From sequence record OQ411014.1: a stretch of 64,000 nucleotides of DNA; one strand, written 5' to 3'. A program made the position numbers and the translations under genes. Origin of the DNA: Escherichia phage EJP2. The notes below the pieces were generated by a model, which ran no database searches, was not told where the DNA came from, and saw only the letters and a list, made by a program, of their open reading frames with translations. Shown here in pieces: positions 1 to 64,000 of the stretch (positions within the stretch are counted from its first letter, which is position 1; each line of letters starts with the position of its first letter).

Positions 1-2157
1 ACGTGAAGCAGGTGGCTCATTGGTTGCATTACTAGTTGAGCGTCGTTTCGCTGTTGTTCTTCGTGGGATACGTTTAGAACCACGTTGTGCATATCCAGTA
101 CCGATACCACTTACCTTGCGAATGACAACCAAATCAGTACTGTCAACCGAACTTTGACTATCTGTAATTGGTGGAGCGTTCTTATTCGATACTTCACCCT
201 TAGTTAGTGACTTGCCAGCGGCATCTTCACCTTGTCCAGTGACTGTTGTGTAGAATAATCCAGGGTCAACTGTACCACTAAAGCCAAATAAGTTTGCAGA
301 ACGGGTTCTGACCTCAAAATTGAGCACTCCATTAACTGTACCAATTACTGCACCCTTTTGTACCATATCTTTATTGTACAAATTAGTACTGATACCGTAG
401 AATATACTCTTATAACCACTCTTATGTGTAATTACTAAACCATTCTTACCTACAGTTGTGATTAATCCACCATCAGGGGCAACTACATCACCTTTGGCTT
501 GAATAATCCAACCATTTCTGTTAGTTTGTGTTCCCTTATCAGTAGGTACTTGTTTACCCCAATAACCGAACTCACGAATAACACCACTCACAGGCATTAC
601 CATCTGTAATCCTTCAAATGTTTGTGGATATGTCATTTCTGATGGAGATTGTGTTAAATCTTGTGTCATTACTTCACCAACTTCTTCAGTAGTGTTTATG
701 AACTGAACTGCTTCTGTTTCCTGAACTGGAACAGTTTGAACTTCAACATCATTTGCTGGTTCTGGCTGTACTGGGTCAGTTGTTGAGCTTCTACCACCAC
801 CATTTACTGGAGGATTCATTGCATCACTATGGTTTTCTGCATCAGTGAACTGTGAGTGATAGTGGATGTGGTCATTAAGGCCAACACTAGGAGTTTTGAA
901 GTTTGGAGCCATAAATTCTGCACTTCCGTGGTTACCAGATGAATCAACTGTTAGTGTTTGTCCACCCCCACTAATATTAACTGTGGTTCCACCAATCAAG
1001 TTAGCAGATGTTTCACCTTTAATGGAAACAGTTGTTCCAGCAGTCATGTCCGTATTAGATCCACTCTGCATACGCAAAGATGCAGCAGTAACTAGACGTA
1101 AATCTGCTCCAACGTTAACAACTACCTGACCAGATACTTTAGTATCTAAAGAACCAAGCAATTCTAACTTAGTAGCTCCTGCTACACGCCAGTTCATATC
1201 TTTACCTACATCAAAGTTAACAGAACCTGTTGCATTGAAGTTAATGTCTTGACCAGAACGAATATTCACGTTCTTGTCACAATATAAATCAATATCACCA
1301 TCAGCAGTAAATTTAATACGAGCAGTACCATCGCGGTTAATCAAAAGAACGTCACCACTTGCTTCACTCAATAGTAATTGAGCACCACTACGAGTTCTTA
1401 GTACAATGCCTTCGTTTTTACGACCACCAACGGTTGTATCATTGACTGGGTTACTAAATTGGGTATCCTGATAACCATCTGGGTCATCAGCCCATGTAGG
1501 AGCATTCAATTCAGCATCTGTGTAGCCATCATCCAGAATAAAACTGTTTCCACGAGGTGAAGACATACCATAAACAGTACTGGTAGTTTGTCTAGTGGAA
1601 CTTCTGTTAGCAACACCTGCTTCTTCATCATATAGTAAGTTTTGTTTCTTCAATCCTTCAATCATTGGGACGTTTGGGTACTTTTCTTCACGATTTGTTT
1701 GAATTGTGTTACGATCATAGTCAGTTACTGGTACTGGCATGTCATGACCACTATTAGGCATCACTTCGGTTGCCATACCAGGAACCATTGTGTTCATACG
1801 CTCATCATATAGACATGCAAACCAATAAGCATCGAAAATACGACCTTGCTTAAAGCATACGGCAACTGTACAACCAACATCCGGTGGTACAGCCCAGAAT
1901 CCGTATCCTTTTGGGTACTGTTGATATGAGTTAGCTCCAGGAACACCCGGAGTTCTTCCTGCGAATGGGGCAAGATATCTTGCCTCAATCCATGAATCTT
2001 TAGAATCTCTGTCACTCTGAGAACCTTCAATCCAAACCTTTAGTTTCCCACTATGAGTTGGGTCACGGTTATCCATTACTGTAGCTAATTGGATAAATCT
2101 GGGGTCAAAACGTGCTAGTTGGTTTTCAGCGAACTGTTTACTGTTATTGGTCGCCAT
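1..2157 (-). CDS. Central tail spike / baseplate hub protein (gpV/gp5-like), partial: 3' end runs past window start
   Basis: Hand translation of the minus strand from ATG 2157 is open for 719 codons to position 1; this gene is absent from the ORF track because it has no stop in the window. N-terminal OB-fold-like motif (GYGFWAVPPDVGCTVAVCF), beta-helix-like G/V/I repeats, DHIHYH motif near 856-870, then a domain resembling an M23 peptidase fold around 300-560. Confidence 0.6.
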   Translation of the reverse strand, partial: MATNNSKQFAENQLARFDPRFIQLATVMDNRDPTHSGKLKVWIEGSQSDRDSKDSWIEARYLAPFAGRTPGVPGANSYQQYPKGYGFWAVPPDVGCTVAVCFKQGRIFDAYWFACLYDERMNTMVPGMATEVMPNSGHDMPVPVTDYDRNTIQTNREEKYPNVPMIEGLKKQNLLYDEEAGVANRSSTRQTTSTVYGMSSPRGNSFILDDGYTDAELNAPTWADDPDGYQDTQFSNPVNDTTVGGRKNEGIVLRTRSGAQLLLSEASGDVLLINRDGTARIKFTADGDIDLYCDKNVNIRSGQDINFNATGSVNFDVGKDMNWRVAGATKLELLGSLDTKVSGQVVVNVGADLRLVTAASLRMQSGSNTDMTAGTTVSIKGETSANLIGGTTVNISGGGQTLTVDSSGNHGSAEFMAPNFKTPSVGLNDHIHYHSQFTDAENHSDAMNPPVNGGGRSSTTDPVQPEPANDVEVQTVPVQETEAVQFINTTEEVGEVMTQDLTQSPSEMTYPQTFEGLQMVMPVSGVIREFGYWGKQVPTDKGTQTNRNGWIIQAKGDVVAPDGGLITTVGKNGLVITHKSGYKSIFYGISTNLYNKDMVQKGAVIGTVNGVLNFEVRTRSANLFGFSGTVDPGLFYTTVTGQGEDAAGKSLTKGEVSNKNAPPITDSQSSVDSTDLVVIRKVSGIGTGYAQRGSKRIPRRTTAKRRSTSNATNEPPASR

Positions 2158-4489
2158 TGCTTGCTGTTCCTTCATCATAATCAGTAGTTTGGTCACGACG
2201 ACGTAGTGAACGGATCACTAATCCACCAGTTAATTGCTGGGTGAACTTACCAGAACCATCAAATTCACTCACAACACTGTTTACACGGTAAATTGTTTGC
2301 GTGAAGATGGTTGGTGTGTCGATTTCCAAAATACCTGTGTTGTTACTAATAGCAACAACGGGTTTAATATTCAATAGTAGATATGCTTCACTGTCAATGT
2401 AGTTTGCGAAGTGAATATCGTCATCACCGACAGCCATTTCTTGGTCATTTACAACTCTATCAAGGTATTGTAGGTAAGAGTAGTCACTCCATCCCAACCA
2501 GTACGGATCACCAATAACCTTCATGTCCAATTTACCTAAGAATGCACGGTTATAGTAGTTGTCACGCATCAAACGACGATCCATTTCGTATTCAGTACTG
2601 TTATCGTTTACAGAACCACTGGTTGCTGTTACGATGTTTGTTGGTTCCAACGGAATTGACTTAACTTGTCCATTATCAGAGCCAATACCTTCAGTACCTG
2701 CATAAGTTAGGTCATATTCATCACGATAGTCTTCAATATATTCATTTACACGAGCGTGAACGTCCAAACGTGTCTCAAGTTGTTCCTTGACACCTTCAAT
2801 TGATAAACCTAGTTTATCAGAAGCGGCTGCGGTTGCATCACGTATGAATTGTTGCTCTTCATCTGATAGTGCACGACCTTCACGCTCATCTTTCTCCAAC
2901 TGAACCTTCTTTGACCACATTGCAGTTACGTTTGTGGTTACTGACGTATCATATCGAACATCATCGAGTACTAATATTTCAGCATTGTGAGTACCTAAAC
3001 GGTTGTCGAAGTCGATTTGTGTTGTTGGGTTACGTGTTACTGCTAAGTTGAATCCTTGGTCGAATTTAATATCCAGATTAAGAATTTCTTGGTTAAGACC
3101 TGTAAACTGATAGTCATAACGTTTAATATTCAATTTAGGAGTATTGTCATTTGGGTCTGCGAATTTATCTGCATTCTCAAAGAAGTATTCAATGTTGAAT
3201 TTGTCTTGCTTTAAGTCATCTTCACTAGTTACATCACCAATTTTATATTTTACAATATAGAAATCGTTTTTATAGACTGATGTATTACGAATATTATCAA
3301 ATCCGACATAACGACGAACTGGAATGATATTCACGAACTGACGTTTGCGGTCAGTACTTTCATGTAGAGGAACACAACAGTCCAGTACATCATCTATTGC
3401 ACGAGAGAATGGCACGTTAGCAGCCCAAGAGAAGTTCTTAGCACCTTGTTGACCATTCTTAGTATTACCAACTTCAGTACTTTGTTTAGCATCATAGTTG
3501 ATAGTCATAGTTGCTAGTTCAGAAGGAACATGAATAGTAAAGAATTCATTGTTTGCAAATTCTGGATATTTAAATGTTAAATAACCATACTGTTCTTCTG
3601 CTTGTTCATTTAGTTTATCCTGAATGCTTTGAAGAAAGTCACCAAAGGTTGCTGATGTGCATGTATATGGTTCTAGCATTGTCCAGTCTTTGTTATCAAC
3701 CAATGCAGTACGGTTTGCCACTAAATTCATGTCGTACTTAACAGTACCACCAGATTCAGTTGCACGACCTTTAATATCGTTAATCCTCACACACCATTTA
3801 CGGTTCAATCCAGTTATAGTTTCTGGTTTACCAGTATTTTGGTCATATCCAACGAAGTTCAATTCTAATACCATTGGCACGTCCATGAATTTTTGATATC
3901 CAAGACGGTTAGACATTACAACTATCTCATCCCATAAACTCATACCTGAGTCTTCTGAAATTTCAATAGTACATTCGTTGAATGAGAAGTTTGAAGTACT
4001 GGCTGGTGTCGCTGGTGCTACACTTTTGATTTTTACGTTAGTAATTGAATATCTTCCAGTTACCCCAGATTGTGCTATAATATATTTTGTAATTTGTTGG
4101 TTCGGTGATGACCAAAACAACGCATATTCTTCGGGTTCCATACTGTACAAAGAAAAGTTCCAAGTTACATTATGATACTTCAAAAGAATATTTTCATATG
4201 GTAGTACTATGTCGTTTAGGTTCCAGTCATTCTTAACTGACAAGTCATCAGTACTTCTAGCGTTAGTATTCTTTGGTCTTTCATCATTCGGTTTAGCACT
4301 AAATGGGTTAGAAATATTTGGCATTGCACCTTTAACCACATTAGTGACTTCTCCTTTGACAGTACTTTTTACTTTATCGATTGAAGGAATCTTACCTTTA
4401 ATTTCGGCAACTTTCTCTTGAGCAACTTCAACTGGTCTGTTGAGTTGGTCAACTGTAGCTGTAACGATTCCTTGTACATTATTTGCCAT
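2144..4489 (-). CDS. Large baseplate/tail structural protein (781 aa), function unassigned
   Basis: Long ORF directly upstream of the spike gene with a 14 nt overlap; beta-rich composition; no catalytic motif recognised. Confidence 0.5.
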   Translation of the reverse strand: MANNVQGIVTATVDQLNRPVEVAQEKVAEIKGKIPSIDKVKSTVKGEVTNVVKGAMPNISNPFSAKPNDERPKNTNARSTDDLSVKNDWNLNDIVLPYENILLKYHNVTWNFSLYSMEPEEYALFWSSPNQQITKYIIAQSGVTGRYSITNVKIKSVAPATPASTSNFSFNECTIEISEDSGMSLWDEIVVMSNRLGYQKFMDVPMVLELNFVGYDQNTGKPETITGLNRKWCVRINDIKGRATESGGTVKYDMNLVANRTALVDNKDWTMLEPYTCTSATFGDFLQSIQDKLNEQAEEQYGYLTFKYPEFANNEFFTIHVPSELATMTINYDAKQSTEVGNTKNGQQGAKNFSWAANVPFSRAIDDVLDCCVPLHESTDRKRQFVNIIPVRRYVGFDNIRNTSVYKNDFYIVKYKIGDVTSEDDLKQDKFNIEYFFENADKFADPNDNTPKLNIKRYDYQFTGLNQEILNLDIKFDQGFNLAVTRNPTTQIDFDNRLGTHNAEILVLDDVRYDTSVTTNVTAMWSKKVQLEKDEREGRALSDEEQQFIRDATAAASDKLGLSIEGVKEQLETRLDVHARVNEYIEDYRDEYDLTYAGTEGIGSDNGQVKSIPLEPTNIVTATSGSVNDNSTEYEMDRRLMRDNYYNRAFLGKLDMKVIGDPYWLGWSDYSYLQYLDRVVNDQEMAVGDDDIHFANYIDSEAYLLLNIKPVVAISNNTGILEIDTPTIFTQTIYRVNSVVSEFDGSGKFTQQLTGGLVIRSLRRRDQTTDYDEGTASNGDQ

Positions 4490-4503
4490 GTTGATTTATC
4501 CTT

Positions 4504-5570: not shown

Positions 5571-5604
5571 TTGATGTATTTATGATTGAGACAACCAGAA
5601 AAAA

Positions 5605-5615
5605 TGTGATATAAT
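5605..5615 (+). promoter_or_regulatory. Early-type promoter, extended -10 box TGTGATATAAT
   Basis: Exact TGTGATATAAT with TTGAGA about 18 nt upstream; about 50 nt before the 5669 start. Confidence 0.6.
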
Positions 5616-7568: not shown

Positions 7569-9713
7569 ATGCTTACAATCAAGAATATTACAATGAGAAA
7601 CTTTTTCTCCTTTGGGAATGCACCACAGACTGTAGTACTGGATAGTACTGATATATCCTTAGTTCTGGGTCAGAACAATGATGTACTTCTCGATGGAGCA
7701 GACAATTCCGGTCGTCGTAATGGGGTGGGTAAATCTGCCCTCATTCAAGGCATCGTATATGGTCTGTATGGTAAAAGTATCGGTAATGATATCAAGATTT
7801 CTAACTTGGTGAATAAAATCAACACTAAGAACTGTGAAGTATTCTTAGAGTTCAGTAAAGATGGTGTTGATTATCGAGTTGAGCGTGGGCGTAGCCCAAC
7901 GTATTTCAACTTCATCACCATGAATCAGGATAAAGCTGATGATGAATCTCGTGGTGAGAAGAAAGATACCCAAGAAGATCTAATTGAAGTTCTTGGTATC
8001 TCGCAACAATTGTTTGAACACATTGTAGTACTGAATGCTAACGTTGAGCCGTTCTTGTCATTGCCTGTTATCAAACAGCGTGATATGATTGAAGAACTTC
8101 TTGGTATTACTCAACTAACCGAGAAAGCTGAACTACTAAAGGACATGCATAAAGAATCGAAACGTCAAGCTGAACAAGAAAAGTTCAAGATTGAAACTAT
8201 TACTGCTTCGAACGAGCGTATCCAGCAGAGTATTTCTATTCTCCAGGATCAAGCCGCTGCGTTTGAGAAAGCTAAGTCTGAAAAGATTGATAGTATCCAA
8301 TCTAAGCTGGTGGATTTTGAGGGAGTTGATTTTGCTAACTTATTTGAAGTTGCGACTAAGAATGAGATGGCTAAACAATGTAATGCAGACAGAGCAGTTC
8401 TTGAAGGTCGAGTGAATACACTTGCTCAGAAATATCAAGACTACGATGCACAGTTAGTTGCAAATAAAGAGTTGATTCAACAAAGCATCCAAGAATTGAA
8501 CACTATTGACATTGTTCAGGAATTGAGTAACCACAATGAATTATCTTCGTGGTTAGAATTGGAGAAGATTCTAAAAGAATCATTGAGTACTAAGAAATTC
8601 AAGGAACAACAGATCAGTACTGCTGAACGTAACTTGAATATGCTAAAAAGTACTTTAGCAAAAGAAGAAAGTTCACTCCAAGATGTTCTTGATAACAAAT
8701 GTTCTCTATGTAAGGGTAATCTAGACCATGATGAAAATCATAAAACTCTAAAAGAGAAAGTACTAAGTTCGATTCAATCACTAAAGGAAGAGATTTCAGT
8801 TGTGGAATTGCAGATTAGTGCAACCGTAGCAGAAATTGATGCTTTGGAGATATTTGACTTGCCAGCTAAACCAGTTACAGTGTATCCTACATTGTCTGGT
8901 GCACAACTTCATGAACATAAACTAGCTGAATTAGTAAAACAGTTAGATGAAGTACAGGTCAATATCTATGAAGAAGAGTTACAGAATTCATATGCTAAGT
9001 TAGCAGAGACACCAGTACTGGAAGTACTAGATTGGTATAGTGTTCAAGAAGTTACTGAATTGAATTTCATGTTCGATGGACTAAAGTCTGATTTAGAACG
9101 AGAAATGAAGTCTGAGAATCACTTCGTATCTCAAATTGAGACACTAAAAACTACATCTCTACAAGCTGTATCGTATGATGAGTTCAATGAGTTCGATAAG
9201 TTGGCTAATCACCAAGAATTCTTGGCTAAATTGCTAATCAATAAGGACTCTTATGTTCGTAAACGTATCATTGAACAGAATATCTCGTTCTTGAATACAC
9301 GTTTACAGTACTATATCGATGCTGTTGGTTCATCTCATCAGGTAGTATTCATGAATGACCTAAGTGTTGATATTACATTGAATGACCAGACCTATGACTT
9401 CAAACAATTGTCTCGTGGTGAGCGTACTAGGGTTAACATTGCGTTATCCTTAGCATTCCGTGATACCTATGAGTCTCTATACCAAGCAATTAACCTCATT
9501 TGTATTGATGAGATGATTGATGTTGGTCTTGATAGTTCTGGTGTAATGAAAACGTGGACAATATTCCAAGATCTTGCAGCTATTCGTAACAAGAACGTAT
9601 TTGTCATCTCTCATAGAGAGGAATTACTCAGTAAAACTGACAAGATACTCAAGATTACGAAAGAAGCTGGATTTAGTTCAGTTGCTTATACAACATTGGA
9701 TGATTTTTTCTAA
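7569..9713 (+). CDS. Rad50/SbcC-like ATPase (T4 gp46-like)
   Basis: Walker A NGVGKSALIQ at N-terminus, long coiled-coil middle, C-terminal signature/Walker B region (LSRGERTRVNIALSLA ... LICIDEMID). Confidence 0.8.
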   Translation: MLTIKNITMRNFFSFGNAPQTVVLDSTDISLVLGQNNDVLLDGADNSGRRNGVGKSALIQGIVYGLYGKSIGNDIKISNLVNKINTKNCEVFLEFSKDGVDYRVERGRSPTYFNFITMNQDKADDESRGEKKDTQEDLIEVLGISQQLFEHIVVLNANVEPFLSLPVIKQRDMIEELLGITQLTEKAELLKDMHKESKRQAEQEKFKIETITASNERIQQSISILQDQAAAFEKAKSEKIDSIQSKLVDFEGVDFANLFEVATKNEMAKQCNADRAVLEGRVNTLAQKYQDYDAQLVANKELIQQSIQELNTIDIVQELSNHNELSSWLELEKILKESLSTKKFKEQQISTAERNLNMLKSTLAKEESSLQDVLDNKCSLCKGNLDHDENHKTLKEKVLSSIQSLKEEISVVELQISATVAEIDALEIFDLPAKPVTVYPTLSGAQLHEHKLAELVKQLDEVQVNIYEEELQNSYAKLAETPVLEVLDWYSVQEVTELNFMFDGLKSDLEREMKSENHFVSQIETLKTTSLQAVSYDEFNEFDKLANHQEFLAKLLINKDSYVRKRIIEQNISFLNTRLQYYIDAVGSSHQVVFMNDLSVDITLNDQTYDFKQLSRGERTRVNIALSLAFRDTYESLYQAINLICIDEMIDVGLDSSGVMKTWTIFQDLAAIRNKNVFVISHREELLSKTDKILKITKEAGFSSVAYTTLDDFF

Positions 9714-10263: not shown

Positions 10264-10464
10264 AGTACTATCATTGTCATCCACCAGCATTCAGTACTTC
10301 TATTATGCATGTTCTGTGTATACAGGAATCACAAAAGTACTAATGACCTTTCTGAAATCCTTGCAGTACTAAGGATGTCCAAAACTCTTGGAGAATGTAC
10401 TTAGTTGCAGTACATAGAGAAGAGTACTATGCTCACGTAATGAAATTATTTTCGAAAAAGTACT
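10264..10464. repeat. Array of six exact AGTACT boxes (five as AGTACTA, same orientation) in non-coding DNA
   Basis: AGTACT at 10264, 10293, 10336, 10365, 10423 and 10459, plus near-copies TGTACT at 10396 and AGTACA at 10409; spacings 29-58 bp; lies between the endo VII start and an early promoter. Confidence 0.6.
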
Positions 10465-10489: not shown

Positions 10490-10500
10490 TGTGATATAAT
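10490..10500 (+). promoter_or_regulatory. Early-type promoter TGTGATATAAT reading into a roughly 700 nt ORF-poor region
   Basis: Exact box; no convincing protein-coding gene downstream until the terminator at about 11189. Confidence 0.55.
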
Positions 10501-11041
10501 ATAAGTACAAGTTCATAAGGTCAGTTTTTACTGATACAGATTAAACCCAATTCACTCGAAAATGTAGAGGATGGATGAGTAGACTTATGACTACGTAGTG
10601 CAAAAGAAACCCGTTAGGAGATGGCATAGTTTGTACCACCCACGGCAATGTGGCACTTTAAATGAACGCGATAAGCAGACAGACGTTCACTAGATAGACA
10701 TATAAGGCTACCTTACCACACTTGCTAAGGGAGTTCAGTTCAGAACTTGTTTTGAGCTTGAACAGCATTAAGATTCGATTGTATGGATTTTAATGTATGC
10801 GTACTAAGACTACGACCGTTGCACATGACCGTGATAGAGAGAAACAGAGCAACCCGCTTTCGTTCTGACTTGTTCAGAAATTCACGATACAATAATTCCG
10901 ATGCTATCAGCGTCAAGCAATATTTCAGATCCTTAATTGGGTCTTTTTTATTGTCTTCATTCCCCTGCGGGGGGATGAAATTGCCTCAACAAATCTCGTC
11001 AAGTATTAAAGTATTAATTAGTTCTTAATAATTAAATTATT

Positions 11042-11457: not shown

Positions 11458-12245
11458 TGATGATTACAGTTACTACATTCAACATCCATAGTATGACTGA
11501 TACCTACATCAAATACACTATCAGACTTTTCACTAATGATTTTGAGATCATTCTTGTTCAAAGTACCAAGCCATTCAGAAATAAATTCTGGTTCAGTTAC
11601 TTCTTCATCATTAGGAGTGACTATCTTCGCAATACTACTGCAAATCATATCATAGTTCAGTTGAGTCATTTTCTCAAAAATGTCACTGAAAATTTCCATT
11701 CTTTCTTTCTCTTCCAAATCAGCACTCATATCAATAACACGAGAACGACTTTGTTGAGCAAACATACGCTCACCAAAAGCAGAATGCTCTTCCCATGTAT
11801 GTGGTCTAAAGTATACTGTTAGTCCATTTTCCATTAGTACTACAGGCTCTTCAGTAAATGAAGTAGTAGTATTGAGTAGATAGTTCAAATCACGACTAAA
11901 TCCACCCACATGTTCACACTCTGGACATGTAACATTGATATCATATGATTCATCTTTAGTAGCTAATTTAATAGCAATAAGTAGTTGCTCTACGTCGTTT
12001 ACATAGAGTTTAGAAGCATCAAGTACTGAAGGGACACAGTTCTCAATTACTTTAGCAATGGCATCACCACCAATTAGTGCATCAGCAGTATTAAGTAGAA
12101 TTTCATCACGTGCAGAACGAGCACATACACCACACTTAGTATTACTTACTACACCTTCAGGGTACTTGATTACATCGTTTGAAACTAGTTTAGTGAACAG
12201 TACTTCAATTTTACTGTACTGTGACAAAGGGTTCATCTTGCTCAT
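11379..12245 (-). CDS. Hypothetical protein with three Cys clusters (possible zinc-binding structural/assembly protein)
   Basis: 288 aa; CGVCARSA, CPECEH and CSNCNH motifs; transcribed divergently from the tape-measure-like gene. Confidence 0.55.
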   Translation of the reverse strand: MSKMNPLSQYSKIEVLFTKLVSNDVIKYPEGVVSNTKCGVCARSARDEILLNTADALIGGDAIAKVIENCVPSVLDASKLYVNDVEQLLIAIKLATKDESYDINVTCPECEHVGGFSRDLNYLLNTTTSFTEEPVVLMENGLTVYFRPHTWEEHSAFGERMFAQQSRSRVIDMSADLEEKERMEIFSDIFEKMTQLNYDMICSSIAKIVTPNDEEVTEPEFISEWLGTLNKNDLKIISEKSDSVFDVGISHTMDVECSNCNHQWELTGLKYDPSHFFGLDFSLVNRKK

Positions 12246-18255: not shown

Positions 18256-19371
18256 ATGTCGAAATTAGATAAGTTTCTAAACGAATCTAGTCTTTCTGAT
18301 GAGGCTAAAGCACTTATCCAGGAAGCATGGAATGAAGAAAAAGCTATTGTAGCTGCCGAAATGCGTGAAGAAATGAAAGGACGTTACCAAGAAGATTTAG
18401 GTCGCTTAACTGAAGGTCTAAATACAATGATGACTGGTGTCATCAACGAAGAAATGAAAACCGTATATGATGAACGTAAACGTCTATCAGAAGATCGTGT
18501 TACTCTTCGTAAAACCCTTGGCAACTTTTCACAATTTGCAAACGGTGTGCTAGCTGAAGAAGTTAAAGGTATGCGTACTGAACGTATCCAAGTTCAAGAA
18601 AGTCTAGACAAGTTCATCGGTTTTAGTAATAAAATCCTAGCTGAAGAACTAAAAGACTTCCATACAGAAAAAACCCAACTAGTTGAAGCACGCGTTAAAC
18701 TAATCGCTGAAGGTCATAAGCAAATTGCTGAAGCCCGTCAGAACTTTGTAAAACGTGCCGCTGAATCCGCTGCTGTTTATATCGCAGAAACCACTCACAA
18801 AAATCTATCGTCTCTTAAAGATGATCTTCGTGAAGCTAAACAAAATATGTTTGGTCGTAAAATTTTCGAAGCGTTTGCGAATGAGTTCCACAATAAACAA
18901 TATAGCGAAAATTCAATTCTACGTCAGTTGACCGAATCTGTGAAACAACATGAAAGCGAAGTGATGGATATGAAGGTCGCTCTTCAAGAATCCAAACAAG
19001 TAGCTGCTGATGCACAACGTAAGATGCGTATCATGGAAGATACTCAAGCTCGTGCAGCAATCATGTCTGAACTGGTTAAGCCTCTTAACCCACAGCAAAA
19101 ACAAATTATGGAATCACTACTTCAAACTTCCCCTACTGCGAAGCTAAAAGACGATTTCAACAAGTATCATAAATCTGTACTGAAAGGTACACTAAATGAG
19201 TCTGCTGCAAAAGGCCGCCCAGCAGTTGATAATAAGGCAAACAAACAAACTCTAGCTGAAGGTAAAGTTATTACCGGAAATCGAGCAGCGATTGTTGAAA
19301 ATGAAATGGACAGTACTGATATGGCGTTCCTCAAAGAAATCGAACACCTTGCAGGAATGACCAAAAAATAA
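18256..19371 (+). CDS. Prohead scaffolding protein (T4 gp22-like)
   Basis: Helical, charged, E/K/Q-rich; AAAGGAGA RBS before ATG 18256; immediately upstream of the major capsid gene. Confidence 0.55.
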   Translation: MSKLDKFLNESSLSDEAKALIQEAWNEEKAIVAAEMREEMKGRYQEDLGRLTEGLNTMMTGVINEEMKTVYDERKRLSEDRVTLRKTLGNFSQFANGVLAEEVKGMRTERIQVQESLDKFIGFSNKILAEELKDFHTEKTQLVEARVKLIAEGHKQIAEARQNFVKRAAESAAVYIAETTHKNLSSLKDDLREAKQNMFGRKIFEAFANEFHNKQYSENSILRQLTESVKQHESEVMDMKVALQESKQVAADAQRKMRIMEDTQARAAIMSELVKPLNPQQKQIMESLLQTSPTAKLKDDFNKYHKSVLKGTLNESAAKGRPAVDNKANKQTLAEGKVITGNRAAIVENEMDSTDMAFLKEIEHLAGMTKK

Positions 19372-20728: not shown

Positions 20729-21823
20729 ATGCCTAAATCATCAATGACTCAACAAGAATTCGAAACTAAAATGACCGAGAAGTATGGTAAAGTAGATTTC
20801 AGTACTATGACGTTTAAGTTGAGTAAAACTACAATCAATTGTCCTAAGTGTGGAAACGCAAATACCAAATCTGCAATCCGACACATTGAATGTACTTGTG
20901 CAAACTGTTTTTCCAATATGTCACAACGTTCTAGTAATGAAATTTTCATCGAAAAAGTAGAAAACAAATTCGGAGCAGGTAAGTTCAAATTCGACAAACT
21001 AAATTATCATAACGCCAAAACTCCGGTTGAATTGTTCTGCACTGAACATAATGCATATTTCACCATTGTCCCAAATAAAATGCTCACTGGACATGGTTGT
21101 AATGTATGTAATAAAAATGAAGCACATACTACTGAAAGTTTCATTACAATTGCGAAAAAGAATTATGGCACTACCACGTTTGACTTCACTAATACAGTGT
21201 ATGTTAACCGCCAAACTAAAGTATCAATCCATTGTAACGAAGGTAATCACGAATGGTTAGTTAACCCAGCAACTATAATCGCCGGAATAAACCAATGTGG
21301 TGTCTGTAAACGCAAATCTGGTATGACAACGGAACGTTTTATTAGTGATGCAAACTCTGTACATGATAATGCATACACATATGAGAACACTGTTTATAAA
21401 AGAAGTGAATGTGTCGTAGATATCACATGTCCAAAGCATGGAAACTTTACACAATCACCAAAGTCACACCTTCGTGGTCGTGGATGTCCAAAGTGTGGTA
21501 AGTATGGTTATCAACAAACACAGCCAGGTTACTTCTATATTCAGAAGTTGACGAATGAGAACAAAACTGTGTATAAGTACGGAATCACTGGTGACATGAA
21601 ACGTCGCGTCCAAGAACAATCCCGTGATTCTGTATTTGAACACGAAGTGCTTGTTGAAATGTACTTTGAAGACGGAAAGAAACCAATGGCATTAGAATCA
21701 CTGTTGAAGAACTATATTGAGAGTGGAGTCACCAGTACTGAAGAATTGCCATCAGGATTTTCGGAAACCTTTGATGAGAAGTACTTAGATGAAGTACTAT
21801 CCATAGTAAATAACTTTAGGTAA
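20729..21823 (+). CDS. Zinc-ribbon-repeat protein with C-terminal GIY-YIG-like (T5orf172-type) domain; candidate homing/mobile nuclease
   Basis: Four repeats of a C..HG.F...P...G.GC..C unit (e.g. CPKHGNFTQSPKSHLRGRGCPKCG); C-terminus GYFYIQKL...YKYGITGDMKRRVQEQ. Confidence 0.5.
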   Translation: MPKSSMTQQEFETKMTEKYGKVDFSTMTFKLSKTTINCPKCGNANTKSAIRHIECTCANCFSNMSQRSSNEIFIEKVENKFGAGKFKFDKLNYHNAKTPVELFCTEHNAYFTIVPNKMLTGHGCNVCNKNEAHTTESFITIAKKNYGTTTFDFTNTVYVNRQTKVSIHCNEGNHEWLVNPATIIAGINQCGVCKRKSGMTTERFISDANSVHDNAYTYENTVYKRSECVVDITCPKHGNFTQSPKSHLRGRGCPKCGKYGYQQTQPGYFYIQKLTNENKTVYKYGITGDMKRRVQEQSRDSVFEHEVLVEMYFEDGKKPMALESLLKNYIESGVTSTEELPSGFSETFDEKYLDEVLSIVNNFR

Positions 21824-22276: not shown

Positions 22277-22582
22277 ATGCAAATATGTTACGTAATCACC
22301 AATAAAGCATGGCCTGAGTGGGTAAAAATTGGATTCACATCTAAATCAGAGATGAAATCCAGACTAAGTACATACCAGACGGGTTCACCATTTAGAGATT
22401 ATGAAGTATATCATGAAGTACTATTTGATGATGCGAAATCCGCTGAAAAAGAAGTACATAAGCGTTTAAAACAAATGAATGCAACTAGATCACCAGGGAC
22501 TGAGTGGTTTAAAATGAGTAAAAAAATAGCAGCCAATATGATTGATTCAGTTCTAGATGATATAGAGAACGACTTGCTATAA
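22277..22582 (+). CDS. Stand-alone T5orf172/GIY-YIG-like domain protein
   Basis: ICYVITNKAWPEWVKIGFTSK...RLSTYQTGSP matches the T5orf172 core pattern; ATAAATAAT box upstream at 22232. Confidence 0.45.
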   Translation: MQICYVITNKAWPEWVKIGFTSKSEMKSRLSTYQTGSPFRDYEVYHEVLFDDAKSAEKEVHKRLKQMNATRSPGTEWFKMSKKIAANMIDSVLDDIENDLL

Positions 22583-22622: not shown

Positions 22623-24332
22623 ATGAGTATTAGTTTTAACCATCCTTCCAACATTGTAACGAGTACGAGTACTCTTGAGATTACAGCATTGGGTGGAACA
22701 GCTAGTAATCCTAAACCAATACGTTTGAATGCATCATCGTTGATTGTTCCGGTTAAACCTCTTCCAGCAGGTGAAATGGGTGCATTAGTATTCGACAATT
22801 CAACCCATACTATGAAGTATCATGACGGTACTAGTTGGGTAGAACTATTGGCTAAAGATGTAATACTACAACCAATCATTAATGATATTGCAACCATTAA
22901 TACTAAATTAGGAACTAAAGTAGATAGTGTTACTTACTCATCTAGTGCCATCCCAAGTGCATCTGTGAGTGGTACAACATTAAACATTATCTTCCCAACT
23001 GGTAGTACTGGCGGTACTGGCCCAACAGGGTTGTATACTTCCCTTAAACCTGGTACAATAACCCACTATGCATTAACATCAGGTCAAAACGCAGCATCTA
23101 TTCGTGAACAGATGTCTGGTGTTTCCGGTGGTCAATCAGGCCGCAACGGAACTTCAGGATCTCCATACAAAACTTCCGATGGTTGGTGTTTCGCTGATGG
23201 ATTATACTGGACATGGGCTGGTGAAAATGGTACAGTAACAAAACAGGTTCCGAACTTAAACCAAGATGCTTATTTGAAACCAATGACTGTTTCTGGTGTA
23301 ACACAAATCGCATCTGTTATTGCTGGTTCAGCACAAATTGGTCAAACTGCATTATCTATTGCTCAATTGCCACCACACAGCTTCACTGTGAGTGGACAAA
23401 CAAGCACAGCGGGTGAGCACATCCACTCCCAACAACTTAGAGGTAATGACCGTTCAGGACACACTGCAATCACTTCTTCTGCTGATGCAGGTATCCCAAC
23501 AGTAATTACTAACGTTAACGCTGCTGGTAATCACATCCATACATTCTCTGGTTCATCCAATACTATTGGTTCTGGTCAGGGTCATGGACATACAATTTCA
23601 AATATTGATGTTAACCACTTTACTGTTGCTGTTTTATATAACATCGCAGAAGGTTCAGTTGCATTGAGTGAGAAAGTTGCAAGTACTAAGTACGTACTGA
23701 AAGCTGGAGACGTAATGACTGGTTCACTTACTATTGCCAACGCATCAATTCTTCGTGGTGATGACGCTTCTCTAGTCCAGTACTTCAGATATGCAAACAA
23801 CACAGAACGTGCAGCAATTTATCATTCATCTTCTAACAACACATTACGTTTACGTAGTAGTGGTGGCACAGAAGTAACGATTGCCAATAACGGTACTTTG
23901 TTCGCTAGTGCATTAACAGGTTCGTCTGGTAACATCAGCGGTACTTTAACAGCTAGTACTATTAGTGCAACTAACGGTACTTTCAGCGGTACTTTAACTG
24001 TTAACTATACCAATACATCTTCATTGAACGTAACAAGTCAATCTGCTGTAGTTGGTGGTAAGAACATTGTTCGCTCCATTAACGGTACTGGTGCTGATGG
24101 AAACGGTAACGTAACACTAACTCTAGGTGCTATCCAAAATATTAAACTTGGGCCACGCCGCCAAACTCCAAAAATGAAAGATGCTTCTTGGACGCATGTC
24201 GAAGCAGGTGGTTTATTGGATGGTGCTTGGATTTCTGTCAACGGTAGTTCAGGAACACACTTAGAAAGATTGAGTTATAGAATGGTTTCTGTTATGGTTA
24301 ACGGCGTATGGAAAACAATTGACGTTGAATAA
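22623..24332 (+). CDS. Tail fibre / receptor-binding protein with HxH metal-binding-type repeats
   Basis: N-terminal GALVFDNSTHTMKYHDGTSWVEL fibre motif; repeated GEHIHS, GNHIHT and GHGHT units; Gly/Ser/Thr-rich C-terminal half. Confidence 0.65.
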   Translation: MSISFNHPSNIVTSTSTLEITALGGTASNPKPIRLNASSLIVPVKPLPAGEMGALVFDNSTHTMKYHDGTSWVELLAKDVILQPIINDIATINTKLGTKVDSVTYSSSAIPSASVSGTTLNIIFPTGSTGGTGPTGLYTSLKPGTITHYALTSGQNAASIREQMSGVSGGQSGRNGTSGSPYKTSDGWCFADGLYWTWAGENGTVTKQVPNLNQDAYLKPMTVSGVTQIASVIAGSAQIGQTALSIAQLPPHSFTVSGQTSTAGEHIHSQQLRGNDRSGHTAITSSADAGIPTVITNVNAAGNHIHTFSGSSNTIGSGQGHGHTISNIDVNHFTVAVLYNIAEGSVALSEKVASTKYVLKAGDVMTGSLTIANASILRGDDASLVQYFRYANNTERAAIYHSSSNNTLRLRSSGGTEVTIANNGTLFASALTGSSGNISGTLTASTISATNGTFSGTLTVNYTNTSSLNVTSQSAVVGGKNIVRSINGTGADGNGNVTLTLGAIQNIKLGPRRQTPKMKDASWTHVEAGGLLDGAWISVNGSSGTHLERLSYRMVSVMVNGVWKTIDVE

Positions 24333-34496: not shown

Positions 34497-37800
<3,304 letters not shown>

Positions 37801-57827: not shown

Positions 57828-57830
57828 AAA

Positions 57831-60213: not shown

Positions 60214-60221
60214 TAACAATC

Positions 60222-60255
60222 AACTACCCAATGCTATGTTGGGTAGTTTTTTAAT
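60222..60255 (+). terminator. Rho-independent terminator
   Basis: AACTACCCAA TGCTATG TTGGGTAGTT hairpin followed by TTTTAAT. Confidence 0.65.
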
Positions 60256-60276
60256 AAAAAACGAGGTAAAGTAAAA

Positions 60277-61041
60277 ATGAAAGTTGATTATTACAAACCA
60301 ATGTCACTTGATTTTATTGAAGAATTTTGGGAAGACCTTGATATGAATCTTGTGATTCAGAAACAAAATCTACCAGAGGACTTCATTTCTAAACATATCA
60401 ATAAGCTAGACACTAACGCACTCGCACGGTATCAGAAACTATCTGTTGATTTCATCAAAGAGAAATGGGAATGGTTTGATAAGAATATTGTTATGCAATA
60501 TATTGTTATGCCGATGGAATGGATTGCAGAGAAGTGGGATGAACTAAAAAACACTGCTGCTGACACCATTGCGAAGTATCAGAAGCTAACAGTTGACTTC
60601 ATCAAAGAGAAGTGGGATACTTGGAGCACTGCTGCTACTGAGTTCATTTCGAAGTATCAGAAGCTAACAGTTGACTTCATCAAAGAGAAGTGGGATTATT
60701 TGGATAAGAACTATATTTCTCAATTCCAAACACTAACAACCGACTTTATCAAAGATAGTCTTTCAACATTGAATGCTAAAGCTGTTGCTGTATTCCAAAT
60801 CATAGAAGATAGTGTTCGTACTCTATTAGGACTACCAGCACCTGCCGCTACAATCACTGGTAATCAAATCCTTGCATTTGATCCATGTTCTGATGGTATG
60901 GCACGTTTCAACGCACACACACCAGACAACAATACAGTACTAACATGGAATGAACTACTACGTCTCCATGGTGGTACACAAGAAGGTAATCGTGATATTC
61001 ACTGGTTATCATGGAAATTAGGAAAATCTATAAACACATAA
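60277..61041 (+). CDS. Tandem-repeat protein (VDFIKEKW units) between nrdA and nrdB
   Basis: Four copies of an approximately 26-residue unit (YQKL[ST]VDFIKEKW...); 254 aa. Confidence 0.5.
   Translation: MKVDYYKPMSLDFIEEFWEDLDMNLVIQKQNLPEDFISKHINKLDTNALARYQKLSVDFIKEKWEWFDKNIVMQYIVMPMEWIAEKWDELKNTAADTIAKYQKLTVDFIKEKWDTWSTAATEFISKYQKLTVDFIKEKWDYLDKNYISQFQTLTTDFIKDSLSTLNAKAVAVFQIIEDSVRTLLGLPAPAATITGNQILAFDPCSDGMARFNAHTPDNNTVLTWNELLRLHGGTQEGNRDIHWLSWKLGKSINT
60573..60695 (+). repeat. Perfect 45 nt direct repeat (two copies, 78 nt period) inside the repeat-protein gene
   Basis: GAAGTATCAGAAGCTAACAGTTGACTTCATCAAAGAGAAGTGGGA at 60573-60617 and 60651-60695; a diverged third copy lies near 60430. Confidence 0.8.
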
Positions 61042-61051
61042 GGAAATGAGA

Positions 61052-62188
61052 ATGTCTGTATTTGCAAAAAATGAAAAATCCCATTTGGAAAAGAAAATGT
61101 TTTTTGACGAAGCAGTTGATATTCAACGTTTTGAACACGTAAAATATTCTGCTATTGATCGTCTATCTGAAACACAATTGGGGTTCTTCTGGCTTCCACA
61201 GGAAGTTGACGTAACTCGTGACAAGATTGACTTTGAAATGCTATCTCCAGTAGAGAAACACATCTTCACTTCTAACTTGAAACGTCAAATTCTACTTGAC
61301 TCTGTTCAAGGTCGTGGTCCAAGCCTAACACTACTTCCTTATACTTCTCTTCCAGAGATTGAAGGTTTCATTAGTATTTGGGATTTCGTGGAAGGTGCTA
61401 TTCATAGTCGTTCCTATACGCACATTATCCGTAACGTATATCCGAACCCATCTGAAGTATTTGACACTATGTTGGATATTCCAGAGATTACTTCATGTGC
61501 AGCGGACGTATCAAAGTACTATGACCGTCTTGATGAGTTGGGTTTACAGTACCGTATGCTTGGTGAAGGTACACATGTTGTAAATGGCGAAACTGTAGTA
61601 GTTGACATGCGTGAACTGAAGAAAGCACTATGGTTATGTTTGAACAGTATCAACGTACTGGAAGGTATTCGTTTTTATGTTTCCTTTGCTTGTTCGTGGG
61701 CTTTTGCACAGAATAAGAAAATGGAAGGTAACGCTAAAATCATCAAACTAATTTGTCGTGATGAGAACCTTCACCTTGCAGCAACACAAATGTGGTTACG
61801 TCTACTCAAGAAAGATGATCCAGATTTCGTGAGTATCGCTGAAGAATGTCAAGAAGAAGTTCAACAAATGTTCCTTGATGCAATTCGTCAAGAAGAAGAG
61901 TGGGCTGACTTCCTATTCAAAGACGGTTCTATGATTGGTGTGAACGCACAAATTCTGAAAGAATACATTCGTTTCATCGGCTCCAAACGTATGCAAGCGG
62001 TTGGTGTGAAATGTCCTTTCCGCGTAAGTAAAACTAACCCACTACCGTGGACTGAGTTCTGGATTAGCGGTTCTGAAATCCAGGTAGCTCCACAAGAAAC
62101 TGAACTAAGTTCATATATCACAGGTGGTATCGTGAACGATCTAGATGATGACTTCTTTGCTGAATTCAAATCTGTAACTACATTATAA
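61052..62188 (+). CDS. nrdB: Ribonucleotide reductase small subunit, class Ia (NrdB)
   Basis: Di-iron ligand pattern incl. FVEGAIHSRSY; 378 aa; ATG 61052 preferred over 61046 on RBS spacing. Confidence 0.85.
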   Translation: MSVFAKNEKSHLEKKMFFDEAVDIQRFEHVKYSAIDRLSETQLGFFWLPQEVDVTRDKIDFEMLSPVEKHIFTSNLKRQILLDSVQGRGPSLTLLPYTSLPEIEGFISIWDFVEGAIHSRSYTHIIRNVYPNPSEVFDTMLDIPEITSCAADVSKYYDRLDELGLQYRMLGEGTHVVNGETVVVDMRELKKALWLCLNSINVLEGIRFYVSFACSWAFAQNKKMEGNAKIIKLICRDENLHLAATQMWLRLLKKDDPDFVSIAEECQEEVQQMFLDAIRQEEEWADFLFKDGSMIGVNAQILKEYIRFIGSKRMQAVGVKCPFRVSKTNPLPWTEFWISGSEIQVAPQETELSSYITGGIVNDLDDDFFAEFKSVTTL

Positions 62189-62193
62189 AAGTA

Positions 62194-62226
62194 AATGGAG
62201 AGCATAATATGTTCTCCATCTTTTTG
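62194..62226 (+). terminator. Rho-independent terminator after nrdB
   Basis: ATGGAGAGCATAATATGTTCTCCAT hairpin followed by CTTTTTG. Confidence 0.65.
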
Positions 62227-62236
62227 AGGGTATATA

Positions 62237-62407
62237 ATGAATAGTTCTGTGTTTAGCTTTCTACCAGATACTGTCTATCGATTTCATTTGGTTGACGGAA
62301 ACCAAATAACTGGTATCATCACTCAAGTGTTTGATGATGGAATCGAGGTTTCTAATCGACGAATCGTTCAAGACAAAATTGTTTTTTGGTACGAAGTTGA
62401 AGAATAA
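62237..62407 (+). CDS. Small hypothetical protein (56 aa), below the ORF-track length cut-off
   Basis: Hand translation MNSSVFSFLPDTVYRFHLVDGNQITGIITQVFDDGIEVSNRRIVQDKIVFWYEVEE; GAGGG upstream. The opposite-strand track ORF 62261-62455 lacks signals. Confidence 0.35.
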   Translation: MNSSVFSFLPDTVYRFHLVDGNQITGIITQVFDDGIEVSNRRIVQDKIVFWYEVEE

Positions 62408-62426
62408 TTGAGATAAAAGATTTTTT

Positions 62427-62700
<274 letters not shown>

Positions 62701-62717
62701 GAACAGGAGCAATACTA

Positions 62718-63443
62718 ATGGCTAAAACTACTCTAGACCTGAATGCACAACTTCAGCAAGTAATCGAATTCATGACTGTTGTTGGTCAAACTGTGAATAC
62801 TCATGAAACTTACGCAACACCAAAAGTTGCAGACTTCCGTACTCGTCTCATCGAAGAAGAAGTTTTCGGTAAGAAAGAATTAGTTGATTCGATGAATAAT
62901 GATGATGTTGTGGGTGTTCTTGATGGTCTATGTGACGTTCTATATGTAACCTATGGTGCTCTAGCAACCTATGGTCTAGAACTAGACACTTCAGTATCTC
63001 ATCCGGTAGAAATCGCGGATGGTGGTTCTAAGCAGATTTTCAAACACACTGCATTTGAACTAATTCGCTCTATCTCTGGTGCAGTAGAGCAATACAAACG
63101 CGGCGTTGAACTAGGTGACTTCCGCACAATGATTCGTGGTCTTGGTAATGTCATTTTTCAAGTAACTCGCATTGCTGAAGAATACAATATCTCTCTTCAA
63201 GCACCATTCGCTGAAGTTCATGCGTCCAACATGAGTAAGCTATGTACAACCGAGCAGCAAGCAATTGATAGTATTGCTGAACGTGTAGAAGCTAATAACG
63301 ACAAGAGTGCTGATTATATTGGTGCTACTATTGCTCGCGTTGAAGTGAATGGTAAAGAGTACTTTGTTATTCGCCGTGCCTCCGACAATAAAGTACTGAA
63401 AGGTAATGGCTTCTTTGAACCTAACCTAGCTAAGTACGTGTAA
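62718..63443 (+). CDS. MazG-like nucleoside triphosphate pyrophosphohydrolase (possible dCTPase/dUTPase-type enzyme)
   Basis: LIEEEVFGKKELVDSMNNDDVVGVLDGLCDVLYVTYGALATYGLEL fits the MazG EExxE...D...DVL core. Confidence 0.45.
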   Translation: MAKTTLDLNAQLQQVIEFMTVVGQTVNTHETYATPKVADFRTRLIEEEVFGKKELVDSMNNDDVVGVLDGLCDVLYVTYGALATYGLELDTSVSHPVEIADGGSKQIFKHTAFELIRSISGAVEQYKRGVELGDFRTMIRGLGNVIFQVTRIAEEYNISLQAPFAEVHASNMSKLCTTEQQAIDSIAERVEANNDKSADYIGATIARVEVNGKEYFVIRRASDNKVLKGNGFFEPNLAKYV

Positions 63444-63451
63444 TAAAAAAA

Positions 63452-63485
63452 AGGGACATATAAAAAAATATGTCCCTTTTGGGTT
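63452..63485. terminator. Bidirectional terminator between convergent genes
   Basis: GGGACATAT AAAAAAA TATGTCCC hairpin flanked by an A-run and TTTTGGGTTTT. Confidence 0.65.
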
Positions 63486-64000
63486 TTAAAATTTCCACAT
63501 AGATTTTTGAACATCTGAAATAATCGGACTAATATCTGTAACAACTTGTGTTATTTGGTTATTGTCATACTCTCTATTGAGAGTTAGCATAATGTATCCA
63601 ATAACCGAATAACCATCATTGGCAGAAATAGGGATGGTTACTACAGTTTTATATGCAATATGAACATTGGCATTTTGATTACAAGTAAACTCACTACCAG
63701 CTTCAAAAATGTCTTCACATTCTGAACGAATAGCTGTGATGTTTTCATAATGCACTTTGTTCAACAGTATTTCTTGAAAAATACGTTTATTGATGATAGT
63801 ACTGTGTATCTTATCTTCGATTGGTTCTAAACCATTCCGATTTACCGACGCAACACCAATTTGGCCTTTAAACATATCCGATGTTTCGGAATCTTTACCT
63901 TCTGGTACGAATTTGTATAAAACCACGTTGACAACCTCTTCTTGTTGAGCTAGAATATCCGCAAAACGTGAATTGATTATTGCTGTTTCAGCACTTTCAC
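63486..64000 (-). CDS. Hypothetical protein, partial: 5' end lies beyond the window end
   Basis: Minus-strand frame is open from 63486 to the window edge by hand translation; the track start at 63926 is a GTG. Confidence 0.45.
   Translation of the reverse strand, partial: ESAETAIINSRFADILAQQEEVVNVVLYKFVPEGKDSETSDMFKGQIGVASVNRNGLEPIEDKIHSTIINKRIFQEILLNKVHYENITAIRSECEDIFEAGSEFTCNQNANVHIAYKTVVTIPISANDGYSVIGYIMLTLNREYDNNQITQVVTDISPIISDVQKSMWKF

Follow-up and report, generated by a model that had tools for sequence, protein, structure and literature searches.

Clade-specific over-representation of the palindrome AGTACT in Rak2-like jumbo phages

The palindromic hexamer AGTACT occurs 166 times, i.e., 2.6 times per kb, in a 64-kb stretch of the genome of Escherichia phage EJP2 (sequence record OQ411014.1, positions 1 to 64,000; referred to here as the window). 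This enrichment is a derived trait, either fully present or lacking, that marks a single clade of jumbo phages, the Rak2-like phages, while the word is either neutral in frequency or purged in their neighbors. Selection very probably acts on the AGTACT DNA word itself, and we consider it plausible, with chances slightly short of even, that the word is a positively selected, density-dependent tag that is read by a protein. Phage genomics usually treats short palindromes as liabilities; in this clade, one of them appears to have been selected to an approximately seven-fold excess while most others were purged, and this selection would be strong enough to have reshaped codon choice, dipeptide content and the stems of terminators.

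The window is part of a larger genome, and its relatives were represented by stretches of 4 to 50 kb each. It has a G+C content of 38% and contains 72 open reading frames (ORFs), predicted with a simple greedy caller, that cover 91.5% of its length; 59 of them are located on the plus strand, so that 82% of the ORFs share one strand. Gene identities were assigned via synteny with annotated relatives, and comprise modules for the baseplate, a late sigma factor, an SbcCD-like nuclease, endonuclease VII, portal, protease, major capsid and tail fiber, as well as DNA polymerase, terminase, SSB, UvsX/UvsY and a helicase, a full T4-like set for replication and recombination. Expected counts derive from a first-order Markov model wherever no other null is named.

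Abundance, coding independence and specificity of AGTACT

The sites considered in the window are the following:

Positions 1 to 64000, no strand: dispersed set of 166 AGTACT copies, 159 in ORFs and 7 outside
Positions 10264 to 10464, no strand: cluster of six AGTACT copies in 201 bp of ORF-poor DNA
Positions 22623 to 24332, plus strand: tail-fiber ORF with five AGTACT copies (2.9 per kb)

A sequence-only reading of the window had noticed that AGTACT recurs every few hundred bp in coding and in non-coding DNA, and had put the expectation at roughly one copy per 3 kb. Both figures agree with the computed ones: the spacing of the sites has a mean of 386 bp (median 272 bp), and 100 dinucleotide-preserving shuffles of the window yielded 22.35 ± 4.67 copies (maximum 32), i.e., about 22 per 64 kb. 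AGTACT ranks first among the 4096 hexamers by z-score (166 versus 22.1), and the words that rank next, CAGTAC and GTACTG, are sub-words of it. The gaps between sites have a coefficient of variation of 1.00, as in a Poisson process, and random placement also accounts for the longest gap and for how many gaps are shorter than 50 bp, statistics that rule out both a regular spacing and a clustering of the sites; these are also evenly distributed along gene length. Among the ORFs of the window, the density ranges from 0 to 4.7 per kb, a range within which the five sites that the sequence-only reading had correctly counted in the tail-fiber gene are typical. AGTACT is scarcer in the most conserved and highly expressed genes (0 in SSB, 1.1 per kb in the portal and 1.6 per kb in the major capsid gene) and reaches 3 to 4.7 per kb outside the most conserved genes.

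The six sites in 201 bp, likewise counted exactly by that reading, start at positions 10264, 10293, 10336, 10365, 10423 and 10459, just upstream of a promoter-like TTGAGA-N17-TGTGATATAAT element (10490-10500), which itself precedes a candidate structured non-coding RNA (ncRNA; see below). They are not part of a longer hidden repeat, nor do they form a conserved array, as the syntenic place in seven relatives holds between zero and three sites. We read the cluster as a local maximum of an excess that pervades the genome, with no special role as an array.

The depletion of palindromes that is usual in phages holds for the window as well, with AGTACT as the lone exception. Twenty-four of the 64 palindromic hexamers are absent from it and many others are depleted (e.g., CTGCAG, 1 versus 10 expected), as are the tetramers GATC (98 versus 224), TTAA, CATG and GGCC. 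In 243 kb pooled from five Rak2-like genomes, AGTACT was counted 524 times versus 72 expected, no other palindrome exceeded 1.6-fold, and 17 palindromic hexamers were at zero; likewise, 17 are missing from all seven Rak2-like samples, including CAGCTG, GCATGC, CTCGAG, GAGCTC and GTCGAC (pooled expectations between 17 and 32), and individual AGTACT-enriched genomes lack between 17 and 30 other palindromic hexamers. Coliphage phi92 has a correlated pattern of avoidance (r = 0.58), and sites for EcoRI, EcoRV and SnaBI occur at the expected frequency in Rak2-like phages.

A by-product of preferred codons, one of the explanations offered by the sequence-only reading, was overturned by the very codon-shuffle control that had been proposed along with it. 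Shuffling of synonymous codons within each ORF gave 42.0 ± 5.3 AGTACT sites (maximum 59 in 500 runs), shuffling of codon order gave 27.0 ± 5.3, and the strictest null, a dicodon shuffle that leaves every dinucleotide, the encoded protein and codon positions one and two unchanged, gave 94.9 ± 6.1 (maximum 113), all to be compared with the 159 sites that are present in the ORFs; every codon-level null is surpassed by more than 10 standard deviations. The frame distribution of the sites shows that the excess is not confined to one reading frame: 93 sites lie in frame 0 (25.6 expected; 3.6-fold), 18 in frame 1 (4.1 expected; 4.4-fold), and 48 in frame 2 (12.4 expected; 3.9-fold). The wider proposition that the enrichment is a passive outcome of codon usage, amino-acid content or dinucleotide composition can point to AGT, ACT, GTA and CTA as favored codons, and the dicodon null, by getting to 95 sites, attributes part of the raw 7.5-fold excess to composition. 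We nevertheless regard this proposition as next to impossible, with all codon-level nulls beaten, with non-coding DNA and every frame enriched, and with relatives of similar G+C content and proteins that are neutral or at zero for AGTACT.

The protein sequences themselves carry a trace of the DNA word. Among the 142 Ser-Thr dipeptides encoded by the ORFs of the window, 93 are encoded by AGTACT and a single one by TCTACT. Ser-Thr is over-abundant (142 versus 87 expected) and Thr-Ser is not (86 versus 87), so that the DNA word has apparently bent protein sequences. These Ser-Thr positions are below average in protein-level conservation, which fits a placement of the word at tolerant positions.

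Non-coding DNA is as rich in the word as coding DNA, in accordance with what the sequence-only reading had noticed. In 34 kb of such DNA pooled from ten Rak2-like loci (32% G+C), 76 copies were found versus 8.2 expected, and the densities in these loci amount to 2.23 per kb for non-coding and 2.28 per kb for coding DNA. Intergenic copies are present in both arms of terminator stems (at 11943/11953 in the RaK2 locus, 33875/33891 in XbC2, and 34083/34098 in phage BF), adjoin a Shine-Dalgarno sequence (AAGGAGTACT), or lie in promoter spacers; AGTACT in intergenic DNA sits where the sequence can vary freely.

One-mismatch variants of AGTACT are represented at only 0.5- to 2.9-fold of expectation, most of them above 1, so that the hexamer seems to be read precisely. 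Its flanks, assessed at 1317 sites in 607 kb of Rak2-like DNA, are not neutral either. At position -1 and, as the complement, at position +1, C has frequencies of 0.36 and 0.39, and G of 0.10 and 0.05 (backgrounds 0.17 and 0.20), and a weaker symmetric preference exists for T at -4 and A at +4 (0.40 and 0.43 versus 0.30). The enrichment of the flanked words amounts to 21-fold for CAGTACTG (C...G), 7.4-fold for AAGTACTT, 5.2-fold for TAGTACTA and 1.0-fold for GAGTACTC (G...C); in the window, 37 of the AGTACT sites are part of the 8-mer CAGTACTG, for which 1.2 copies are expected. What is selected thus amounts to H-AGTACT-D, C...G being the favored flank pair, and no longer hidden motif surrounds it, the context logo being limited to the ±1 positions and the weak preference at ±4. 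Two observations indicate that the flank preference overrides codon usage: of 48 Leu codons that follow A-GTA, 24 are CTG, a codon that accounts for only about 10% of CTN codons, and a C preceding AGTACT is doubled at third and at second codon positions alike. A perfect palindrome in a two-fold symmetric context of 8 to 14 bp is what one would expect of a symmetric dimer that reads duplex DNA, and is in this sense suggestive.

Clade limits and turnover of the sites

A megablast search with a 12-kb query found a best match of 82% identity over about one third of the query, and the matched relatives are all jumbo myoviruses of the Rak2/PBECO4/121Q type, with genomes of about 350 kb and Enterobacterales as hosts. 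The gene order of the window is collinear with that of Erwinia phage Hallingskeid, Klebsiella phage fENko-Kae01, PBECO4 and RaK2. An IMG/VR contig whose capsid protein is 96% identical is only 74 to 80% identical to the window at the DNA level. The counts of AGTACT in the sampled relatives and in comparison sequences are as follows (observed/expected):

Hallingskeid: 129/16
fENko-Kae01: 74/13
PBECO4: 78/13
RaK2: 80/10
GAP32: 114/14
CBB: 112/16
XbC2: 90/14
Serratia phage BF: 86/12
CBB, early-gene region: 161/13 (12 to 21 copies per 5 kb)
69 environmental contigs with capsids 62 to 68% identical, 720 kb: 221/207, neutral
Atu_ph07: 3/5.2
T4: 7/9.4
PA5oct (capsid 67% identical; locus L010, 65.8 to 107 kb): 0/14.3
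XacN1 (locus L007): 0/9.3
Coliphage phi92 (locus L015, 1 to 50 kb): 0/15.4
E. coli K-12, a single 50-kb sample: 3/4.8 (about 0.06 per kb)

Every genome of the Rak2/PBECO4/GAP32/CBB/BF type that was sampled is three- to eight-fold enriched, and in none of the nine sampled genomes of the Rak2 type does another hexamer rank above AGTACT. Eleven IMG/VR contigs with capsid identities of at least 86% exhibit a 2.8- to 7-fold enrichment, and in 10 of them AGTACT is the top palindrome. The trait is not confined to late and structural genes; the early region of CBB is even denser in sites, and the trait therefore spans all temporal gene classes. XbC2, which is recorded on Xanthomonas, is enriched as well, which indicates that the trait follows the phage lineage. 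In PA5oct, AGTACT is the single most depleted palindrome of a genome that otherwise avoids few.

Individual sites are far less stable than their density, as judged from protein-guided codon alignments with relatives. In Hallingskeid, with a nucleotide identity of 76%, 51% of the AGTACT sites of the window are kept, compared with 25% of other same-frame hexamers, and in two more distant relatives the values are 27 to 29% versus 15 to 19%. Where a Ser-Thr dipeptide is conserved, the relative uses AGTACT in 79 to 90% of the cases when the window does so, and in 53 to 67% when the window does not; for other conserved dipeptides, identical hexamers are found in only 34 to 39%. Hence, existing AGTACT sites seem to be preferentially kept and new ones seem to arise preferentially, a turnover pattern that fits weak selection over many interchangeable sites, in which density counts and position does not.

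Candidate readers and competing explanations

Selection in the Rak2-like clade would maintain H-AGTACT-D genome-wide at two to three copies per kb; its target would be the DNA itself, not the encoded proteins, and what counts would be the number of sites, not their location. Duplex AGTACT would be read by a two-fold symmetric, sequence-specific and clade-specific factor, which we infer to be a protein encoded by the phage itself, and the benefit of its binding would scale with the density of sites, as is the case for Chi, for DNA-uptake sequences (DUS) and for FtsK-orienting polar sequences (KOPS). The word occurs about 2.6 times per kb in the phage, compared with about 0.06 times per kb in a single 50-kb sample of host DNA, and at this contrast a binding protein or an enzyme could tell phage DNA from host DNA, a discrimination that would need no bulk base modification and that, as we hypothesize, would be attractive for a T4-like phage that lacks hydroxymethylcytosine. 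We also entertain, as a possible though doubtful extension, that Rak2-like phages, being without bulk modification or a phage nucleus, mark their own DNA with about 900 copies of H-AGTACT-D per genome, and that a dedicated phage protein reads the word as part of a self-identity system. Such a reader might shield the DNA from nucleases, or might direct replication, transcription or packaging factors to it, and phages of the PA5oct, XacN1 and phi92 types would in that case have purged the word under a pressure in the opposite direction, exerted by host restriction or possibly by AGTACT-directed weapons of competitors. If true, this would be a new answer to the question of how large unmodified phage genomes are distinguished from host DNA.

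The enrichment might instead reflect DNA modification. In one form, AGTACT would be the target of a site-specific modification by the phage that blocks ScaI-type restriction and has, in addition, a positive function such as the marking of phage DNA or of newly replicated DNA. Restriction pressure on the site does exist, as is evident from its purge in phi92 (0 versus 15.4), and a specificity as sharp as this, over 6 to 8 bp, is reminiscent of restriction-modification enzymes. Members of the clade encode as many as three DNA methyltransferases, three having been reported for CBB (PMC5259590 and its supplement), and the DNA of RaK2 was reported, as data not shown, to be resistant to many enzymes (PMC3622015). 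The distributions of the CBB enzymes, which were delimited by tblastn thresholds and not by curated orthology, fit this explanation poorly. The C5 enzyme (CBB_399) was found in 49 records, with close homologues in Mimasvirus, Asteriusvirus, RaK2-like phages and Hallingskeid and with no match at E ≤ 1e-97 in Eneladusvirus or in the Munch/fENko-Kae01 group. Methylated CpG has been reported for RaK2 from bisulfite sequencing (data not shown) and was attributed to the C5 enzyme of the clade (PMC3622015); AGTACT contains no CpG, and phi92 possesses a 50%-identical C5 enzyme and yet has no AGTACT at all. The N4-cytosine (N4C) enzyme (CBB_157) was found in 18 records only, from Mimasvirus and Eneladusvirus. 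A small enzyme of the Dam family (CBB_72, PF05869) is present in every enriched subgroup, at 40 to 86% identity, and is absent from the organism tally of the PA5oct group; this family was typed on GATC enzymes. As a partner of the trait, none of the three enzymes shows a clean co-occurrence. Furthermore, the substitution spectrum at AGTACT sites that differ by one base revealed no excess of C>T decay, and ten enzymes gave the predicted digests with DNA of a close relative, the Asteriusvirus fEgEco12 (PMC13070987), which speaks against a bulk base replacement. Since EcoRI, EcoRV and SnaBI sites are tolerated at the expected frequency, the toleration of ScaI-type sites does not by itself demand protection, and from protection alone one would expect AGTACT at a neutral frequency, not in seven-fold excess. 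We therefore consider a site-specific modification unlikely, and the suggestion of the sequence-only reading that modified DNA escapes restriction found no support in the digestion of fEgEco12 DNA (PMC13070987), in the reported CpG target of the C5 enzyme (PMC3622015), in the limitation of the N4C enzyme to part of the clade, or in the Dam-family membership of the sole universal enzyme.

AGTACT could also be a signal for the replisome or for recombination, e.g., by serving as a preferred start for primase or as the place at which a phage nuclease or topoisomerase initiates recombination-dependent replication, with a high density of sites speeding the copying of 350 kb. T7 and T4 primases start at GT-containing trinucleotides, AGTACT holds 5'-GTA-3' on both strands, density matters and position does not, and the window has the full T4-like replication and recombination module. 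However, known primase sites of 3 to 5 nt require no enrichment, and both the neutral environmental relatives and the AGTACT-free PA5oct have the same type of replication module, so that we judge such a signal to be improbable. A neutral drive, in the form of a mutational bias that depends on context or of a gene conversion biased in the manner of very-short-patch repair, would be blind to function and would thus produce the equal enrichment of coding and non-coding DNA, and T4-like phages recombine heavily. Conversion should deplete the one-step neighbors of the word, but these stand at 0.5- to 2.9-fold, most of them above 1, and a conversion drive of the very-short-patch type is rejected on this ground. 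Existing AGTACT sites are moreover retained about twice as well as other hexamers, the symmetric specificity over 8 to 14 bp goes well beyond known mutational contexts, and protein sequence has been bent towards Ser-Thr; a drive of whatever kind is accordingly likewise improbable. If the motif worked in RNA, AGUACU in transcripts of either strand would be bound by a phage RNA-binding protein or nuclease. Any transcript that crosses a site carries AGUACU, and the flanks show some sense-strand asymmetry, with C at +1 being rarer than G at -1. A palindrome would be unneeded, however, when 82% of the ORFs are on one strand, the two-fold symmetry of the flank preferences extends to ±4, and promoter and terminator DNA is equally dense in sites, so that a function in RNA strikes us as quite improbable. 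Finally, the hijacking of a host factor of the Enterobacterales, such as the nucleoid-occlusion protein SlmA, to block cell division is highly improbable. The consensus of SlmA, GTGAGTACTCAC, has an AGTACT core, and the recorded hosts of the enriched clade are almost all Enterobacterales. Still, neither GT.AGTACT.AC nor GT.AG..CT.AC has any match in the 64-kb window, there is no preference for G and T at positions -3 and -2, the flank pair in GAGTACTC is the only unenriched one (1.0-fold), and XbC2, recorded on Xanthomonas, is enriched; AGTACT sites as SlmA sites were rejected because the SlmA flanks are absent.

As to a protein-read tag, the suggestion of a recognition element for a phage protein, which the sequence-only reading had also made, is favored by the symmetric context, the sharp specificity, the density that is kept despite turnover, and the limitation to one clade, and the protein itself did not come to light. 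Several points weigh against such a tag. No reader was identified among the genes and candidates examined, and none of the genes tested, the C5, N4C and Dam-family methyltransferases having been compared, tracks the AGTACT trait convincingly: as judged by homology, the C5 and N4C enzymes would cover parts of the clade, and the universal Dam-family enzyme appears to be a divergent member of a GATC-typed family. The non-coding cluster at 10264-10464 is not conserved at the syntenic place and therefore provides no obvious nucleation array. Coding constraints distort the flank statistics, so that the argument from symmetry is suggestive and no proof; AGTACT and its preferred flanks are palindromic, which precludes a strand skew tied to the direction of replication and makes strand or orientation tests for a translocating reader impossible. 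Owing to the simple ORF caller, some of the nominally non-coding sites are probably located inside short or missed genes.

A Pfam scan of ten small ORFs of unknown function in the window for nuclease, methylase or helix-turn-helix domains recovered only one protein, a conserved stand-alone member of the T5orf172 family (GIY-YIG superfamily), which nothing links to AGTACT:

Positions 22277 to 22582, plus strand: T5orf172/MUG113 protein of 101 amino acids (Pfam), with 62 close homologues, all in the AGTACT-enriched clade

A further ORF with weak matches to this family is inserted next to it, behind the capsid gene, and looks like a homing endonuclease in that only some relatives have it:

Positions 20729 to 21823, plus strand: ORF of 364 amino acids with zinc-finger-like and weak T5orf172 matches, present in only some relatives

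Neighboring elements and comparison with known systems

The window and its relatives contain several further elements:

Positions 10490 to 11010, plus strand: ORF-free stretch of about 500 nt behind the strong promoter-like TTGAGA-N17-TGTGATATAAT, ending in two hairpin-plus-T-run terminators
Homologues of this stretch: locus L001, 10591-11096; L002, 10495-11000; L003, 10445-10950; L014, 8146-8681
Positions 5605, 10490, 28844, 39165, 39261, 44552, 49454, 55911 and 62427, all plus strand: nine exact copies of TGTGATATAAT
Positions 8306, 29949, 34761, 37162, 44124, 45810 and 51613, plus strand, and 10281 and 15466, minus strand: E. coli Chi octamer GCTGGTGG
Positions 35164 to 37800, plus strand: large-terminase ORF of 878 amino acids (547 in Hallingskeid and PBECO4)
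Positions 18792 to 49176 of the CBB early region (L014, i.e., CBB 250-300 kb): many tRNAs, including Ser(GCT), Leu(TAG), Thr(TGT) and Val

The stretch at 10490-11010 is a candidate for a new structured ncRNA of Rak2-like jumbo phages. It is conserved across the clade above the level of its flanking genes (84% versus 76% nucleotide identity in Hallingskeid), and CBB has a second copy where its annotation leaves a gap. The folding of the stretch is better than that of shuffled sequences (z = -3.5), RNAalifold predicted 102 pairs from nine sequences, 28 of them with compensatory double changes, and no match was found in Rfam. Upstream of most copies of TGTGATATAAT, at a distance of about 17 bp, there is a TTGAGA(C/T) element together with an A-rich tract; TGTGATATAAT probably represents an extended -10 class of early or middle phage promoters. 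The Chi octamer is in excess on both strands (7 versus 0.40 expected on the plus strand, 2 versus 0.24 on the minus strand); Hallingskeid likewise has 7 and 2 copies, and other relatives have 1 to 5 in total. This excess may serve to tame RecBCD, or may in part be a codon effect of GCT-GGT-GG. Within the large-terminase ORF, a LAGLIDADG/Hom_end domain at residues 281-357 is followed by Terminase_6N at residues 422-626, and at the terminase position, RaK2 and fENko-Kae01 encode ORFs that are similarly long; the LAGLIDADG segment looks like an intein-type insertion. The tRNAs of the CBB early region decode the codons that form AGTACT in three frames (AGT, CTN, ACN, GTN), and the set may be an adaptation to a codon usage imposed by the motif.

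The contrast between the enriched clade and its neutral or purged relatives points to an unrecognized, sequence-specific machinery that acts genome-wide. The 8-bp word offers a handle for finding this machinery, with GAGTACTC as a built-in negative control, and the enrichment can serve as a diagnostic signature for the assignment of metagenomic contigs to the clade. Full-text literature searches on AGTACT/ScaI and these phages found no account of the enrichment.

Among known systems, AGTACT resembles Chi, KOPS, the DUS of Neisseria and the uptake signal sequences (USS) of Haemophilus: like these, it is a short exact word in several- to tens-fold excess that is present in all frames and in coding and non-coding DNA, its density is kept despite the turnover of sites, it is specific for a clade, and it is occasionally paired in terminator stems, as is the DUS. 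Its dispersed, genome-wide over-representation is that of architecture-imparting words such as Chi and KOPS. In contrast to AGTACT, which is a perfect palindrome of viral genomes, those words are asymmetric, Chi and KOPS are oriented with replication, and Chi, KOPS and DUS are read by the known machines RecBCD, FtsK and ComP, the reader of AGTACT being putative. Like the words subject to restriction-site avoidance, AGTACT, which is the site of ScaI and Eco255I, belongs to the 6-bp type II palindromes; 17 to 30 others are avoided in the genomes that are rich in it, and phage relatives and phi92 avoid AGTACT completely. The sign of the effect is, however, reversed in the Rak2-like clade to a seven-fold enrichment, and the depletion typical of a restriction-avoided type II site is not seen (166 versus 22 in the window; 524 versus 72 in the pooled genomes). 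The Dam/GATC system, a methylation mark for SeqA and MutH, likewise involves a palindrome that owes its usefulness to being frequent throughout the genome and that symmetric proteins read on duplex DNA, and the clade encodes DNA methyltransferases; GATC, unlike AGTACT, is not strongly over-represented in E. coli, and no AGTACT-specific methyltransferase or methyl-reader was found here. SlmA sites (GTGAGTACTCAC) have in common with the phage word the AGTACT core and, potentially, the use of DNA as an activating scaffold for a protein, but their flanks are absent from the phage sites, which number in the hundreds per phage genome as compared with about 20 to 50 SlmA sites. Over-represented functional words are thus known in bacteria; the clade-wide, approximately seven-fold enrichment of a restriction-type palindrome amid the purging of other palindromes appears to be new.

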